DNA of 63,154 nucleotides from Opitutales bacterium (GTDB taxonomy: Bacteria; Verrucomicrobiota; Verrucomicrobiia; Opitutales; T3Sed10-336), in assembly GCA_022565335.1 (NCBI GenBank), contig JAIUMY010000005.1, positions 1 through 63,154 on the forward strand, written 5' to 3'. How positions within the stretch are numbered: the first letter of the stretch is position 1; each line of letters opens with the position of its first letter. The notes under the pieces were generated by a model. It ran no database searches, had not been told where the DNA came from, and saw nothing but the letters and a program-made list of their open reading frames with translations. Position numbers and translations under genes: made by a program. Shown here piece after piece: positions 1-63,154 of this stretch.

Positions 1-346
1 CCAGCGTCCGCTGCACCTGTTCCACCGAATTGGGCGCATAGGCTATCGAACGAGGCGTCTTGCGCAGATGATTGTTCTCCCCGTGCAAATGCCCATACCG
101 CTCCACCAACTCCTCGTCGGTCAGCTCCACCCCCTCCGCAGCGGGCACTTCCACCAGAATATGGAAGTGATTGGCCATCATACAGTAGGTCAAGACCTTG
201 ACCCCTGAAAAGGCCGCCACTTTGTGTAACATTTTGGCAAGAACGGCTTTCTCCTTCTCGCCAAAAATCTTTTCTCCATTCACTGTCCGCGACATCACAT
301 GATAAACCGCCGGACAGTCCGTAAAATGTAAACGTTTTCGTTGCAT
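1..346 (-). mobile_element. RAYT/TnpA(REP)-like Y1 HUH transposase, N-terminal 115 aa, truncated by the window start (not in the ORF track)
   Basis: Manual translation from ATG 346: MQRKRLHFTDCPAVYHVMSRTVNGEKIFGEKEK...AAFSGVKVLTYCMMANHFHILVEVP...LTDEELVERY. Contains the NHFH HUH motif and is collinear with 26978..27982. Confidence 0.9.
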
Positions 347-25219: not shown

Positions 25220-26332
25220 TCACAGCGGACACTGTTCAGAAATTTCCAAACCATACCCCTCTAACCCCACCACGTGCTTAACCCCACTGGAGGACAGAAG
25301 TCGAATTTTGCGCAGACCCAAAGCCGTCAAAATCTGCGCCCCGATGCCATAATCACGTACATCCATCCCCCCGGGCTCTGGCAGAATTCCACTCAAATTT
25401 TTCTCCAAGAGACCTTTGATGCCTCTTTTTTCCTGGGTTATATACACGAAAGCTCCTTGCCCTTCTTGGGCAATTCGCTGAAGAGCCTTTTCCATACTCC
25501 CGTGATTTTTCCAATCCGTCCCAAGAAATACGTCACTCAGAATATGTTCACTTTGCACCCGCACCAAAAAAGGCTCAGGGCCCGGAGTCCCAAGAGTCAG
25601 GGCAAAATGCAGACGATGGTCGAGCTTACTGCAAAACACCGTCAGATTGAAGTCTCCGTAAGACGTTTGAATGGGCCTTTCCAGTACTTTTTCCACCAAT
25701 TTCTCCCGCTTCCGGCGATACTCAATCAGCGAGGCAATCGATATCATTTTGAGCCCAAAGCGGTCACGGAATTCTATCAATTCAGCCAAACGAGCCATCG
25801 AACCATCCTCGTTCAAAATTTCACAAATTACTCCGCTCGGATGCAAACCCGCCAGAGAAGCCAGATCCACCGAAGCTTCCGTATGCCCGGCACGCTCCAA
25901 GACTCCCCCTGCACGAGCTCTTAAAGGAAAAACATGCCCCGGTTGGACCAAATCCTCTGAAGTTGCCTTCGGATCCGAGAGAATCCGAATAGTTCGCGCC
26001 CGATCATAGGCACTGATTCCCGTCGTAATACCCTCCGCAGCATCCACCGAAACCGTAAAATCCGTTCGGTGGGATTCACGGTTATCCCTGGACATCTGAT
26101 GCACTCCCAAACGCTTCAGCTGATGATCCGTCGTCGGCACACAAATCAGCCCCCGGGCATGACGAATCATCATATTCACTTTCTCCGGCGAAACCTTACT
26201 TGCCGCCATAACCAAATCCCCTTCATTCTCCCGATCCTCATCGTCCGTAACAATCACCAACTCCCCCGCACCAATAGCTAGGATCGCCTCCTCCACCGAA
26301 TCAAAGATACTCTCATCAGAAACTTTCATCAT
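25220..26332 (-). CDS. ribB: DHBP synthase fused to a degenerate GTP cyclohydrolase II domain (RibBX type)
   Basis: DDEDRENEGD, FTVSVDA, PGHVFPL, RAGHTEA; the C-terminal domain has VRVQSEHILSDVF with no Zn cysteines. Confidence 0.88.
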   Translation of the reverse strand: MMKVSDESIFDSVEEAILAIGAGELVIVTDDEDRENEGDLVMAASKVSPEKVNMMIRHARGLICVPTTDHQLKRLGVHQMSRDNRESHRTDFTVSVDAAEGITTGISAYDRARTIRILSDPKATSEDLVQPGHVFPLRARAGGVLERAGHTEASVDLASLAGLHPSGVICEILNEDGSMARLAELIEFRDRFGLKMISIASLIEYRRKREKLVEKVLERPIQTSYGDFNLTVFCSKLDHRLHFALTLGTPGPEPFLVRVQSEHILSDVFLGTDWKNHGSMEKALQRIAQEGQGAFVYITQEKRGIKGLLEKNLSGILPEPGGMDVRDYGIGAQILTALGLRKIRLLSSSGVKHVVGLEGYGLEISEQCPL

Positions 26333-26384
26333 CTCACCATAATCCAAAAAACCTCCCCCGCCAAGCCCCGACAATCCACAACCC

Positions 26385-28038
26385 GTCAATAATAAAAATT
26401 ACCCGGAAATTTATAAGGAAACCTGCCCTGATACCCATATTTTGTAACCTTACTTATGTATTTCCCCATGGGATGGGCTCGAACATTACAAAATACAATC
26501 AATTTACCTCTGCAAGATCGGGCTTAGCGGGTTTTTGCCTTTGATTCCTTCTTATTCCGGATTTCTTCGACACACTTTACACTCTCGTAGATAAAAAGTC
26601 TGTCTCGCACGCCACGATGTCGTGTTTCCTCTTTTTAATTGATTGATGCAAAAAGAGAGCCCCAGGGATTTTGGAGGTCTTTACTTACGATGTTACCCCA
26701 GAAGGCCAATCACTTTTCTGTTTTTCATCCAAGGTAAGCCCCTTGGTGGCCGGCAATAATCTGGTTGACCCACCGTTCGCTTTCTGGAGTCGCAGTAAAC
26801 TGCGGCGTTATTCTATCTTACGTTAGGCCCGATTCTTGTGACCACAGAGGAGAGCAGAAGCAAGCTTTCGCATCAAATAGAGAGGCCACGCCTAAAGTTA
26901 GTCCGCATTCTTTAAATCCTGCATTTTGGCGAGCCCCAAAGCCGCAAAGGTTTCTCAGGATGTTGTCGGCTTCTAATCTATTTTTTCCAAAAGCGCCTTT
27001 TACTACTGCTAACTTCGGCGAAAACACTTTCTTTTGGAGGAGAATTTGTCGCCAAACCCATTTCTCCTGCAAAAGTCTCCCAAACCCCCCGGACGAAATC
27101 TAATGTTCCCACAACAAGGCCCCGGTTAAGAGGAGCTACCATGTGCCGCCAGACGGACTCCTTTTCAGCGGGACGATTGGCTAAAAAGGCACTGAGCTCT
27201 GACAACTCACCGACCGCCCCTTTGCCAGCCTTGGCAATACTGCCACGGCCCAAGAGGAAGTTGCCATACTCTTCCAAAAAGCATGAAACATGACCTGAGA
27301 CATTGGGGTTATATAACTTTATAAGTTCCCGCATGCCTGGTCGAACCGCTTTGTGGCTTTGGGCTTCCCCGTAACCACTAAAAGCATAATTTCCCGGATC
27401 GTCGACCAAACCGGCACGCACCGGATTCAACTCAATATAGGCGGCTACGGTAAGAAGGGCACGACTTCCGGGTTCGACCAGAACACTAACAAATCGCTCG
27501 TTCCAGACTGGGCCAAATCTTTTACGGTGGACATTTAGCCAAATGGCAAAACGCTGTTTAAACGTCTTCATAAATTGGGAAAGATCGTGCATACGCACCA
27601 GAAGACTAGCTCGCATTTTCTCGGCCCGTTCCCCACCCCTTTTAAGGATTTCAGCCACTTCCTCGGGCTCGGGAGGTTCGTATCGAATCGCTCGCTCACT
27701 TTCCCTTAATTCCCGGTCCTCCTTATAAAGAATTCTATAGCGGGCAATCAATTCTTCATCAGTGAGCTTAATTTTACTTTTGTCAGGGACTTTCACCAGT
27801 ACGTGGAAATGATTGGCCATCAGACAGTACGTCAGAATTTCCACACCGGAAAATCCAGCAGCCCTAAAAAGCATTCTTCGCATGACCCCTTTTTCTTTTA
27901 TCCCGAGAAATCTCTCTCCATTCACCGTTCTGGATAAAACATGATACACCCCCTCTCCCTCTTGAATAACAATTCTCTTCATCCCCCCAGCTCAGCAAAT
28001 ATCGATCCATTGTCAACTATATAAATTACCTGCTAATT
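26385..28038 (-). mobile_element. Putative HUH (RAYT-like) element 2, bounded by imperfect direct repeats
   Basis: GTCAATAATAAAAATTACCCGGAAATT (26385-26411) and GTCAACTATATAAATTACCTGCTAATT (28012-28038) match at 21/27 and flank the HUH gene plus ~570 nt of non-coding DNA. Confidence 0.6.
26978..27982 (-). CDS. RAYT/TnpA(REP)-like Y1 HUH transposase (complete)
   Basis: YHVLSRT, YCLMANHFH (HUH), WNERF, AYIELNPVRAGL (catalytic Tyr), YAFSGY. Confidence 0.92.
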   Translation of the reverse strand: MKRIVIQEGEGVYHVLSRTVNGERFLGIKEKGVMRRMLFRAAGFSGVEILTYCLMANHFHVLVKVPDKSKIKLTDEELIARYRILYKEDRELRESERAIRYEPPEPEEVAEILKRGGERAEKMRASLLVRMHDLSQFMKTFKQRFAIWLNVHRKRFGPVWNERFVSVLVEPGSRALLTVAAYIELNPVRAGLVDDPGNYAFSGYGEAQSHKAVRPGMRELIKLYNPNVSGHVSCFLEEYGNFLLGRGSIAKAGKGAVGELSELSAFLANRPAEKESVWRHMVAPLNRGLVVGTLDFVRGVWETFAGEMGLATNSPPKESVFAEVSSSKRRFWKK

Positions 28039-28092
28039 AAAATAATGAATTTTTGCTTGTGGTGGGGGTCTAAATTGGACCAATTTGGAGGG

Positions 28093-28962
28093 GTGTTTGA
28101 GCAAGTGACTATTTTGGGGGCGGGGCTTTTGGGAGCTTCGTTGGGAGAAGCGGCGAAATTGAAGAATTTGGCCGGTAAGGTGCATGTTTGGGCGAGAAGG
28201 AAAGAAATTCGGGAAAAACTGAATGCCGGGGCATCTTGGTGTGATCGGGCTTTTGCCCAACCTGCGGAAGCTGTCAAAGGGGCCGATTTGATCGTCGCAT
28301 GTACCCCTGTGGAGCATATTGTCGAGCTTTTCGCGGACATTCGGGACTCTATTAGAAATGATGCATTGGTTACGGATGTTGGAAGCGTTAAACAACAAAT
28401 TTGTGAAACTGGTCGCGCTTCTTTTTTGGCAAAAGGGGTTTTTATCGGATCTCACCCGATGGCTGGGTCAGAAAAAAGCGGCTTGGAAAACGCCGATCCC
28501 CGACTTTACGAAGGACGGAATTGCTTCGTCACTCCCTTCCCTGATGAGAATATTGACGCAGAGATCACAAAATTGCGAAATTTCTGGGAAAGTCTGGGAA
28601 TGCGGGTCACCCTAACCTCTCCGAGCGACCACGACTTAATCGTCGCGCATATAAGTCATTTACCCCATTTTCTGGCCTCGGCCCTGGCTTATCATTTATC
28701 AAAGAAACCTTCCTCCTGGGATAATTTGTGCGGCGGGGGCCTGAAAGACACCACACGTATCGCCGCGGGGGATCCAGGAATGTGGACGGATATTGCGAAA
28801 CAAAATCGTGGACAAATCCTCTTAGCTTTGGATGAATTCGAAGAATCACTAAAGCATTTGCGTGAACATCTTCATGCAGAAGAGGCCCACGCCATCAAAG
28901 AATTTTTAAAAACCGGTCAAACCTATCGCCGTAGACTGCCTAGCTCCTATGAATCTGACTGA
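28093..28962 (+). CDS. tyrA: Prephenate/arogenate dehydrogenase
   Basis: GAGLLGAS, TDVGSVK, HPMAGSE, SHLPH, DTTRIA; GGAGG precedes the GTG start. Confidence 0.9.
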   Translation: MFEQVTILGAGLLGASLGEAAKLKNLAGKVHVWARRKEIREKLNAGASWCDRAFAQPAEAVKGADLIVACTPVEHIVELFADIRDSIRNDALVTDVGSVKQQICETGRASFLAKGVFIGSHPMAGSEKSGLENADPRLYEGRNCFVTPFPDENIDAEITKLRNFWESLGMRVTLTSPSDHDLIVAHISHLPHFLASALAYHLSKKPSSWDNLCGGGLKDTTRIAAGDPGMWTDIAKQNRGQILLALDEFEESLKHLREHLHAEEAHAIKEFLKTGQTYRRRLPSSYESD

Positions 28963-61311: not shown

Positions 61312-62391
61312 TTAGCGGACGACCGGAATTACGGGCCAACCGGAGCCGGAGCGGGAGAATTCGCGCTCTGCAAATACCCAAATCACCAACTTTTTCCCTT
61401 CCAGGGAATCTCCCCGGCGGGCCAAGGTCATGCGGGAGGCATTGGCACCACTCCCCATGACGGCGGTGATATCGGGCGCAATCCCAAACTGCGCCGCCAA
61501 ATGGTCCCCAAGACCCGCACGGGTGGTCAGCAAATCCCGATGCCCGTACACCAATCCATGACTGTCTCCCATGAGAACGATGGAGCTTTCCTGGTCACCG
61601 CGGACCCGCTCTCCCCCCAAGCTTACCTGATTGACAGTGATGGTCTCCTTCTCCTCGCCAATTTGTGAGGCCAAATCTCCGGTGACCGACAAAGTTGTTT
61701 CATCAAGCGAAACCTCCGCCCGATCCAGTTCCCCGACCCAGTCTTCGTCTTTTACCATCTCGTAGATCTGTGCGGCCACTTTTTCGACGGCCAAGGGGGA
61801 CCAATGCGCATCGGTGCGCATATGCGACAGGTGCCCTTCGGCCCGCAATTCTCCCAACAAATCGGTCGCATCCAGAACTTCCACTCCGGCCTCTGCCAAT
61901 TCTTCCAAGAAAGTCGCCCGAGCCTCATCGGTCCAACCTTCCAAAGTCGGATCCAATTTCTCCGGATACGCCGAGACTTTCGAAGGAACCGGAAGAACGA
62001 TCAAACGCACACCCGCTGCCGAGGCCTGCTCGGCCATGCCAACAATGGCAGGCAAGGGATCGGGGTTTCGCGAGGAAGCCGCCACCTCCGCAGCACGATC
62101 TCCCCAAAAGGGTCCGGCCGCATGATGACGCACGTCATTCAGACCAAACAGCCACCCGTCGACCCCGCGTATAACCACCGCGTTATTGAGCGCTTCCCGC
62201 GCCTCCGCCACGGCTTCGGCATCATCAGCATCGGCCGCCGCGCCCATTCGGGCTTCCGCCTCCTCGACCGCTGCGGCCCCATCCGTTGCCAACTCGGTCA
62301 GTGCGGGCGGCACCGCACCCCAAAGAGGCAAGGCCAAAACACCGACAAAGGCCGTTGAAAGAAACAAGGAAGAGGAAGTGATGAATTTCAT
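61312..62391 (-). CDS. AlgX/AlgJ-like SGNH O-acetyltransferase family protein
   Basis: GVDGWLF, VPSKVSAYPE, RTDAHWS (D-x-H), MGDSH (Ser). Confidence 0.8.
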   Translation of the reverse strand: MKFITSSSLFLSTAFVGVLALPLWGAVPPALTELATDGAAAVEEAEARMGAAADADDAEAVAEAREALNNAVVIRGVDGWLFGLNDVRHHAAGPFWGDRAAEVAASSRNPDPLPAIVGMAEQASAAGVRLIVLPVPSKVSAYPEKLDPTLEGWTDEARATFLEELAEAGVEVLDATDLLGELRAEGHLSHMRTDAHWSPLAVEKVAAQIYEMVKDEDWVGELDRAEVSLDETTLSVTGDLASQIGEEKETITVNQVSLGGERVRGDQESSIVLMGDSHGLVYGHRDLLTTRAGLGDHLAAQFGIAPDITAVMGSGANASRMTLARRGDSLEGKKLVIWVFAEREFSRSGSGWPVIPVVR

Positions 62392-62523
62392 AAAATTAAA
62401 GCGGGGTGAAAGGTTCAATGACCAGTAAAAAAGAATGACCATTCCCCCGTCAAATGGTTCCCTCTAAGGACGCCGCCTTCCCTTTGACCCGCCCCTCATC
62501 AGCTCGAAAGTCCAAAATAACAA

Positions 62524-62554
62524 AGTCAATAATTAAGTTTATAGAACCTATTTT
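62524..62554. repeat. Downstream terminal direct repeat of HUH element 3
   Basis: AGTCAATAATTAAGTTTATAGAACCTATTTT, 26/31 identical to 375..405; lies 33 nt beyond the HUH gene stop. Confidence 0.7.
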
Positions 62555-62587: not shown

Positions 62588-63154
62588 TTACTTCTGTTCT
62601 TTTGCATCGGTTTTGTTGAAACGGAAGAAATTCGGCGTAAATAATCCGGCCAGCGGAGTCTCAAAAGTTTGACTGGGGCGTCGTACCTTAGGCGAGAGAC
62701 AATTCTTTGCTTCCTTCAATAGTTGCCCGACGAAAGACTCTGATCCGACCACCTGGGCTCTGGTAACCGCCGCAAAGACCTTTTCCCGGGCGCGACGTTC
62801 GCCTTCGTTTTTCGCCTGCTCACGGAGCAAACGGGTAATTTCCTCATGTGCCTCTTGGTCATCAAGGTGGCCCTTGCCTTCCCGCGGCATTCGCCCCTGA
62901 CCCAGTACCAGCATCCGGTAAAACCGCAACACATCACTGCCCGTATCCTTATCTATCGCATCCACAATATACCCCAACTCAGTCATTGGCTCTCCCGTCA
63001 TCACCGACTCACCGTAACCGCTGTACGCATACTTCCCCGGATCTTTCACCAACCCTGCCCGCACTGGATTCAGATCAATATAAGCCGCCACCACCTTCAA
63101 GGCATTGGCCCGCCCCTCCACCAGGACACTCTTGAACTTCTCACTCCACAGCGG
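62588..63154 (-). mobile_element. RAYT-like Y1 HUH transposase, C-terminal part, truncated by the window end
   Basis: PLWSEKFKSVLVEG...AAYIDLNPVRAGLVKDPGKYAYSGYGE is homologous to the C-terminal half of 26978..27982. Confidence 0.9.

Follow-up and report, generated by a model that had tools for sequence, protein, structure and literature searches.

The subject of this analysis is a family of Y1-HUH nuclease genes, together with the short DNA units containing TTGAC that accompany them, in a 63,154-nt stretch of an Opitutales genome (GenBank assembly GCA_022565335.1, contig JAIUMY010000005.1), referred to below as the window. The window is one whole contig (C5) of an assembly with 196 contigs and 3.29 Mb, and it contains one complete gene of the family (copy 2) and two partial genes in which the contig begins and ends (copies 1 and 3), all on the minus strand, as had been noted in an initial annotation of the sequence. 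We lean, tentatively, towards the view that these are ancient elements of an IS200/REP-like kind which had the units as their ends, and which are now fixed and kept in a domestication-like state, as RAYTs are. This view is favoured because the amplified segment in one group of copies (clade A) runs from unit to unit, the units are HUH-specific and stacked at TTGAC, the nearest relative of the protein with a solved structure binds a repeat hairpin, and the genes are strand-biased. The element around copy 2 is composed of the following parts:

28012..28042, minus strand: upstream unit, with weak AATTA/TAATT arms around GCAGG, an AT-rich spacer and TTGAC, ending 29 nt before the ATG
27983..28011, minus strand: leader of 29 nt from TTGAC to ATG, poorly conserved in the sister species
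26978..27982, minus strand: copy 2, a complete Y1-HUH gene of 334 amino acids (PF01797, E 1.7e-7), the sole member of clade C
26415..26977, no strand assigned: non-coding spacer from the stop codon of copy 2 to the downstream unit, with no Rfam family and unalignable to the sister species
26385..26414, minus strand: downstream unit, with AAATT/AATTT arms around TCCGGGT, an AT-rich spacer and TTGAC, in the same orientation as the upstream unit

In the source genome (G000), a tblastn search with copy 2 as the query gave 47 matches to a Y1-HUH family of 300-350 amino acids; related copies are not independent data points in this and the following counts. Where the 5' end of a copy is present, a conserved unit almost always precedes it, with 23-31 nt between the end of TTGAC and the ATG. 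The unit, 35-70 nt in all, consists in this order of a box or imperfect palindrome that is AT-rich and has C(A/T)G(G) at its centre, an AT-rich stretch of about 10-12 nt, TTGAC and a G/T-rich tail, and TTGAC is the constant part of every unit type. The repeats in the window had been described as ending in TTGAC on the sense strand of the gene; all four do carry it there, but the G/T-rich tail continues past it. In the 40 nt after TTGAC, downstream copies have a G+T fraction of 0.69 and solo units one of 0.64, as compared with 0.52 +/- 0.11 for 828 other intergenic TTGAC sites, and these tails resemble the leaders of HUH genes. The solo units, which were found without any gene, include 6 of type A, 20 of type B and about 6 of type C.

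The reported agreement between the two repeats of copy 2 was reproduced (21 of 27 positions identical between 26385-26411 and 28012-28038). Taken alone, this pair is modest, and its local alignment score of 25 was equalled by one of 200 random 900-nt chunks of the genome, as might be expected if the likeness were a chance resemblance among AT-rich, TTGAC-containing intergenic sequences. The genome-wide counts leave this explanation with an almost negligible probability. A position matrix for the type-A unit found 79 matches of at least 12 bits, as compared with 4 in a shuffled genome, and 40 of the 47 strong sites (at least 24 bits) flank HUH genes: 21 are upstream and 19 downstream of such a gene, with six solo units and one reverse reading of a palindromic site making up the rest. 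Matches of this matrix on the reverse strand comprise the palindromic core only, with low scores. For type B, 68 matches were found as compared with 12 in the shuffle; the 10 best sites lie upstream of HUH genes, one lies downstream (+480), and 20 are solo at a threshold of at least 20 bits. The copy-2 type, GGTAATT-N4-10-TTGAC, has nine sites in the genome, where a rough estimate from base composition gives about three by chance; two flank copy 2, one is beside another HUH gene on contig C6, and the others are solo or in tandem on contigs C16, C42 and C90. Moreover, units are conserved in a sister species of the same genus (G001). Chance resemblance was rejected on the matrix counts, the HUH-flanking sites, the conservation in G001 and the number of copy-2-type sites.

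A tree of the 20 proteins with at least 250 amino acids is divided into three clades that match three unit types. Clade A has 11 members, eight of which have a downstream copy of the unit by regular-expression search, and window copy 1 is completed by contig C19; clade B has nine genes, and copy 2 forms a clade of its own. The two clade-A genes in the window and their units are as follows:

2..346, minus strand: copy 1, the N-terminal 115 amino acids of a clade-A HUH gene (PF01797, E 7.3e-8, 33 bits), which continues on C19
376..403, minus strand: type-A upstream unit of copy 1 (matrix 40.0 bits), 29 nt before the ATG at 346
62588..63154, minus strand: copy 3, a clade-A HUH gene truncated at the contig end, of which the C-terminal 188 amino acids are present
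62525..62552, minus strand: type-A downstream unit of copy 3 (matrix 38.3 bits), with TTGAC ending 63 nt past the stop codon

The repeats beside these partial genes had been treated as one matched pair, and they are indeed identical at 26 of 31 positions (375-405 and 62524-62554), but they belong to two different elements. Because the first 127 nt of C5 are identical to the last 127 nt of C19, the partial genes represent two clade-A elements split by assembly breaks rather than the ends of a single one. The fragment of copy 3 is without a Pfam match; it matches REP_Tyr_transpos at 5.4e-6, and its DNA is 80-85% identical to other copies. Across clade A, the dispersed repeat starts at the upstream unit and ends precisely at the downstream TTGAC, and the likeness of copy 3 to other copies stops at exactly this point. 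Type-A downstream units are in direct orientation, either 62-76 nt or about 290-375 nt past the stop codon. In clade B, similarity begins sharply about 58 nt before the ATG. Head-to-tail arrays were also found, in which units abut at TTGAC with a period of 31-37 nt; some of them are mixed, with A beside B on C4 and C beside A' on C6. Paired flanking repeats, which had been anticipated for homologues of copy 2, are present in clade A and at copy 2 itself, lack a strict downstream member in clade B and are rare in other genomes.

The main rival explanation holds that the unit is only the promoter and operator region of the HUH gene, in which TTGAC is the -35 element and the mRNA has almost no leader, and that the downstream and solo copies are uncut promoter regions, relic or reused, of lost tandem paralogs. 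It is possible, although we consider it rather unlikely. TTGAC(A) is the canonical -35 sequence, and in the units it is preceded by AT-rich DNA. The distance between TTGAC and ATG is conserved across the order: at 46 of 76 loci in other genomes, 15-60 nt (median 32) separate the end of TTGAC from the ATG, as compared with 173 of 5424 control windows (3.2%), and most genomes have a unit upstream of the gene only. In one paralog group of another Opitutales genome (G043), seven of 18 copies (L136, L139, L140, L142, L145, L147 and L149) have TTGAC, 16-17 nt, TAGAA[AG], 8-9 nt and ATG, a promoter-like geometry that, read from the sequence, would give a nearly leaderless mRNA. A further Opitutales genome (G042) contains a direct tandem of two family members with one upstream unit each (L171, G042:C3:1075487-1077896), and this pair shows one route by which an apparent downstream copy can arise. 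In addition, some solo units precede co-oriented genes, and the unit before ribBA is conserved along with its tail.

On the other hand, a -10-like hexamer 16-18 nt from TTGAC is present in only one of 30 source-genome copies and, apart from the G043 paralog group, in one of 76 and none of 19 copies elsewhere. TTGAC is not a general upstream signal in the source genome, where 1245 upstream regions contain it 278 times in sense and 176 times in antisense orientation with no -10 pattern; the repeats are specific to HUH genes and distinct from generic AT-rich TTGAC promoters, as had been supposed. For 12 of the 19 downstream units the next gene is convergent, and arrays such as that on C18 likewise point into convergent genes or sit antisense between genes. 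Neighbouring genes were called by a crude longest-open-reading-frame method, and two of the 'co-oriented' neighbours (100 and 123 amino acids) appear spurious; all six convergent neighbours tested are real genes with strong Pfam domains (Aminotran_5, EamA, GFO_IDH_MocA, AIRS, SET and GDSL). Furthermore, the abutment of different unit types precisely at TTGAC does not fit a promoter, and the downstream unit stands at a fixed 62-76 nt past the stop codon in 13 clade-A copies, so that it belonged to the amplified segment and is not a relic of separate neighbours. A promoter with relic copies would thus account for the unit next to the gene throughout the order, but it does not account for convergent neighbours, for arrays of mixed type or for a downstream unit at a fixed distance. 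The upstream unit may drive the HUH gene, but a simple -35/-10 arrangement leaves the downstream and solo units unexplained.

The protein also speaks for the ancient-element reading. Copy 2 scores 31.8 bits against PF01797, for which the gathering cut-off is 23, and has the HUH motif at H58-F-H60 and the tyrosine motif at Y182-IELNP; the family motifs are NHFH, W[NSA] and YI[ED]LNP, and an alignment of 96 sequences shows no variation at residues N57, H58, H60, Y182, L185 and N186. The AlphaFold2 model (pLDDT 85.6, pTM 0.86) contains an insertion of helices (residues 75-128) that separates the HUH strand from the core helix 134-152, as well as a helical C-terminal third of 130 amino acids. The first Foldseek match in the PDB is 4er8, a structure of E. 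coli TnpA-REP bound to a REP hairpin (E 1.4e-5, TM-score 0.70 on the target), and the next are the ISDra2, IS608 and IS200 transposases (including 2xqc and 2a6o). Searches of PDB sequences with the profile and with the protein gave nothing significant. The best NCBIfam model is REP_Tyr_transpos (NF047646), with 57 bits and thus below its 80-bit cut-off, and the IS200 model NF033573 gives 19.3 bits as compared with a cut-off of 55.

Orientation is a further line of evidence. Measured by local GC skew (+/-10 kb), 37 of 46 HUH copies have their sense strand on the strand that is locally richer in G, as compared with 1159 of 2176 for all genes (53%; p = 1.6e-4), whereas only 24 of 46 lie on the strand that carries the local majority of genes; for solo units the count is 16 of 24 (p = 0.15). 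The G-rich strand would, on standard reasoning, be the lagging-strand template; this template serves IS608 and ISDra2 and is preferred by further members of IS200/IS605, according to the relevant sections of PMC5027513. Local GC skew in the source genome is strong, with values over 20 kb that often reach 0.05-0.2, although no more than 53% of the crude gene calls are on the G-rich strand. A second sign of strandedness is seen within the units, in that mismatches in the type-A palindromes comprise 57 G.T and 18 C.A pairs, favouring the sense strand.

On the ancient-element reading, the segment from unit through gene to unit would once have been mobile in the manner of IS200/IS605 elements or REPtrons. 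The HUH protein would recognise the box in single-stranded form, on the sense (top) strand, and would nick at or next to TTGAC. Cuts at both units could then release a circle with one unit and leave one unit behind, and insertion would take place beside the TTGAC of an existing unit. The copies are now old, stay at fixed loci and are under purifying selection, similar to domesticated RAYTs.

Several observations weigh against this reading. Cleavage, excision and insertion polymorphism have not been observed, and the contigs of four DNA sequencing runs from one study contain no excision joint or circle junction at the copy-2 locus; no RNA run was listed with the locus. Among six element loci compared with the sister species, copy 2, copy 3 and those on C26 and C29 are occupied in G001 too, that on C47 probably so, and no clean empty site was found, the C52 locus being rearranged. 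The empty ribB-tyrA allele that had been proposed as a check was sought there, but the site is filled by the copy-2 ortholog. Three of the four solo-unit loci compared (C18, C23 and C19) are conserved as solo units in G001. The copies themselves are old: clade-A paralogs differ by dN 0.04-0.12 and dS 0.6-0.8 (nonsynonymous and synonymous divergence), and their leaders and units are only 40-79% identical, which is less than their open reading frames, within unrelated flanks.

The units provide further points on this side. Predicted single-stranded hairpins in the source genome have energies of -0.3 to -0.9 kcal/mol and are no better than those of shuffles, and type-A palindromes show no double compensatory changes. 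Palindromes are also not general across the family, with a mean best stem of 4.33 as compared with 3.74 in shuffles. Clade B has no strict downstream copy among its nine genes of at least 250 amino acids. Outside the source genome, a significant direct downstream copy (at most 1% of null scores as high) was detected at four of 67 loci; in G042 and G043 together there is one in 37 loci, which is the upstream region of the next tandem paralog, and 10 of 11 pattern matches in G043 are gene-proximal. The strand bias is not repeated in G043 (12 of 20) or G042 (10 of 21), where local skew is weak. Finally, the initial annotation proposed that each nuclease variant is paired with its own repeat. Three clades do match three unit types, but co-duplication alone would give the same match.

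Comparison with the sister species also provides a measure of age. G001 keeps the gene order yidD-ribBA-HUH-tyrA-aroA, with a copy-2 ortholog whose protein is 85% identical (dN 0.078, dS 1.54; for ribBA, dN 0.033 and dS 1.20), and the positional ortholog of copy 3 there is 93% identical over 1865 nt including flank. Both copy-2 units are conserved, and the ribBA-proximal unit and its tail are nearly invariant; the 3' spacer of copy 2 is unalignable and about 300 nt shorter. The upstream unit in G001 is the sole exception with regard to hairpins (-5.7 kcal/mol, z -3.3). Judged from these sequence comparisons, the HUH copies are old genes under purifying selection and not a recent burst of an insertion sequence.

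Within clade A, identity is 85-97% at the 5' end of the open reading frame and about 70% at the 3' end. The first ~110 nt are 90-100% identical across 18 copies in 10-nt column bins, including most synonymous sites, and the leader just upstream is only 58-79% identical; in the window, such a conserved start is found at 237-346 on the minus strand. Within it, CGGACTGTCCG forms an imperfect palindrome similar to the box of type B. The conservation of this segment could be due to gene conversion or to a signal at the level of the DNA.

The downstream unit of copy 2 is at the same time the start of the region before ribBA, and the tail and the genes on both sides of the element are as follows:

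26333..26384, minus strand: G/T-rich tail of 52 nt, which is also the region upstream of ribBA and reaches to its ATG at 26332
25220..26332, minus strand: ribBA (DHBP synthase and GTP cyclohydrolase II), the neighbour downstream of the element
28045..28962, plus strand: prephenate dehydrogenase gene (tyrA), the divergent neighbour upstream of the element

The G+T fraction of the ribBA-proximal tail is 0.88 over its first 40 nt, and its first 17 nt from TTGAC are identical to the leader of the clade-A copy on C29. Together, positions 26333-26414 form an HUH-type unit with a G-rich tail containing several G runs, which is kept in the sister species. No FMN riboswitch was found before ribBA in a scan with Rfam, which detected three tRNAs only in the whole window and no family in 26385-28040. 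No HUH-type unit was found in the ribBA upstream regions of 10 other genera. The downstream repeat had been proposed to supply a -35 element to ribB. This cannot be a general role of such repeats because 12 of the 19 next genes converge on the unit, but a promoter or 5' untranslated region role before ribBA is plausible because the unit and tail are kept in G001 and are absent in the 10 other genera. Some units, such as that before ribBA, are now probably upstream control sequences of the neighbouring gene. In a more far-reaching version, these are peel-and-paste elements of ancient origin, and their end unit has a second role as a portable control cassette: the nuclease would cut the top-strand TTGAC on the lagging-strand template and move both the unit-gene-unit segment and bare 31-37-nt units beside existing units, thereby placing or removing the control sequences of host genes such as ribBA. 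This version is improbable. If true, it would supply a cognate DNA substrate for long RAYT subclasses that have so far been without repeats (2.1 and 2.3-like).

It is also conceivable that the HUH proteins have become fully domesticated DNA-binding regulators, for which the box is a double-stranded operator, bound for example via the C-terminal helical region, and the units form a small regulon. Strong purifying selection and fixed loci would agree with this, as would the 130-residue helical region and the position of units upstream of some housekeeping genes (ribBA, and an open reading frame that we take, by eye, to be PurD-like). Boxes across other genomes, often GGGACAGG, GCCAGGC or a longer palindrome, would agree as well, since sequences like the first two are conserved in different genera and have no potential to form a hairpin. 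Against it, the catalytic HUH and tyrosine residues are invariant in all 96 aligned sequences, which argues for retained nuclease chemistry, and the Pfam scan found no DNA-binding domain, neither HTH nor DnaA_C. Moreover, many units are not upstream of any co-oriented gene, and both the G.T mismatch bias and the orientation bias of the genes point to single-strand biology. Overall, there is only a slim chance that this explanation is the right one.

Among known systems, RAYTs (TnpA-REP) are similar in several respects. The best structural match and the best NCBIfam model both belong to them, and the YIELNP or YIDLNP motif fits the Y---NP tyrosine signature given for class 2 in PMC6006769. As in RAYTs, a short cognate repeat flanks the gene and is also present, in part clustered, at other intergenic sites, and inheritance is vertical with purifying selection. 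However, the flanking repeats are direct here and inverted there, and the units are AT-rich with a weak or no hairpin, a 3' TTGAC and no GTAG foot, whereas REPs have a 5' GT[AG]G foot and a G+C-rich stem in the description of PMC6006769. Units number in the tens rather than the hundreds typical of REPs, there are 47 matches to the protein in the source genome whereas RAYTs are typically present at about one per genome, and the protein is twice as long and below the cut-off of NF047646.

The IS200/IS605 family shares the Y1-HUH fold and the multi-copy state, and in both cases one strand carries a pair of similar end structures that are directly oriented. ISDra2 has the pentanucleotide TTGAT as its cut site. 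A short constant oligonucleotide at the proposed cut site is a common feature, IS608 using TTAC, and the orientation bias to the lagging-strand template is another, in the source genome only (both as set out in the relevant sections of PMC5027513). The differences include the tyrosine motif, which is Y---NP here and Y---Q there, and the divergence among copies, which have 40-96% DNA identity as compared with 99.4% for subclass 1.1 (PMC6006769, Table 1). In addition, there is no tnpB, the copies are fixed at orthologous loci, and NF033573 is below its cut-off. The upstream TTGAC lies 3' of the box, unlike in IS200/IS605, and the left unit would therefore remain after excision.

The protein also has much in common with the long RAYT-like Y1 nucleases, which are widespread and for which the relevant parts of PMC6006769 give no assigned cognate DNA (subclasses 2.1 and 2.3, Bertels group 1). 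Subclass 2.1 (Bertels group 1, 'TIRYT') has the NH[YF]H HuH motif and the YIELNP tyrosine motif, as in this family. Subclass 2.3 is alike in length (about 325 amino acids), in a helical insertion of ~55-60 amino acids between beta3 and alphaC, in the long C-terminal tail and in having several diverged copies per genome, but its motifs NHYH, WE and YVDLNP are not matched, and those found here fit subclass 2.1 better (PMC6006769). The same parts of that source note the absence of a REP-like structure near the gene in both subclasses, describe terminal inverted repeats of TIRYTs that carry GGGGWSAS, and report the two subclasses from Proteobacteria and other phyla, not from Opitutales; the present family differs in its host and in having a direct-repeat unit. 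Among the records returned by a literature search, no paper was found joining Opitutales, Coraliomargarita or Puniceicoccaceae to IS200, RAYT or tyrosine transposases. The source genome gives a candidate substrate for the long RAYT-like nucleases, namely a unit of box plus TTGAC, which occurs as direct repeats around the gene as well as in solo and tandem copies. It may also serve as part of a natural series for the domestication of HUH transposases, with paired units in one genus and only an upstream unit elsewhere.

Across Opitutales, 2958 proteins match the family at E <=1e-10, including 71 in G042 and 43 in G043. A 72%-identical relative of copy 2 in another metagenome-assembled genome is not before ribBA but before an open reading frame that, read by eye, is presumably a xylose isomerase gene; it, too, has a TTGAC about 65 nt past the stop codon.

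In the source assembly, 32 of the 47 HUH-family matches adjoin a contig end and 15 are internal, by hand count from the tblastn table, and the HUH family is therefore a main cause of the fragmented assembly. Copy 3 is followed, beyond its type-A unit, by one further gene:

61312..62442, minus strand: gene for an AlgX-like SGNH hydrolase, downstream of the type-A unit and in the same orientation

Two other contigs bear type-B units in particular settings. On C96 (5700-6330), three such units are 236 and 299 nt apart, and each is followed by a nearly identical stretch of ~60 nt. On C32 (14600-17700), a 1.3-kb segment at positions 196-1493 of that region, with two small open reading frames (235 and 112 amino acids), lies directly upstream of a solo type-B unit, after which comes the PurD-like reading frame referred to above. 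This segment is missing from the orthologous site in G001, where the match resumes just before the unit, beside the 1.3-kb indel; it is the fourth of the solo loci compared.

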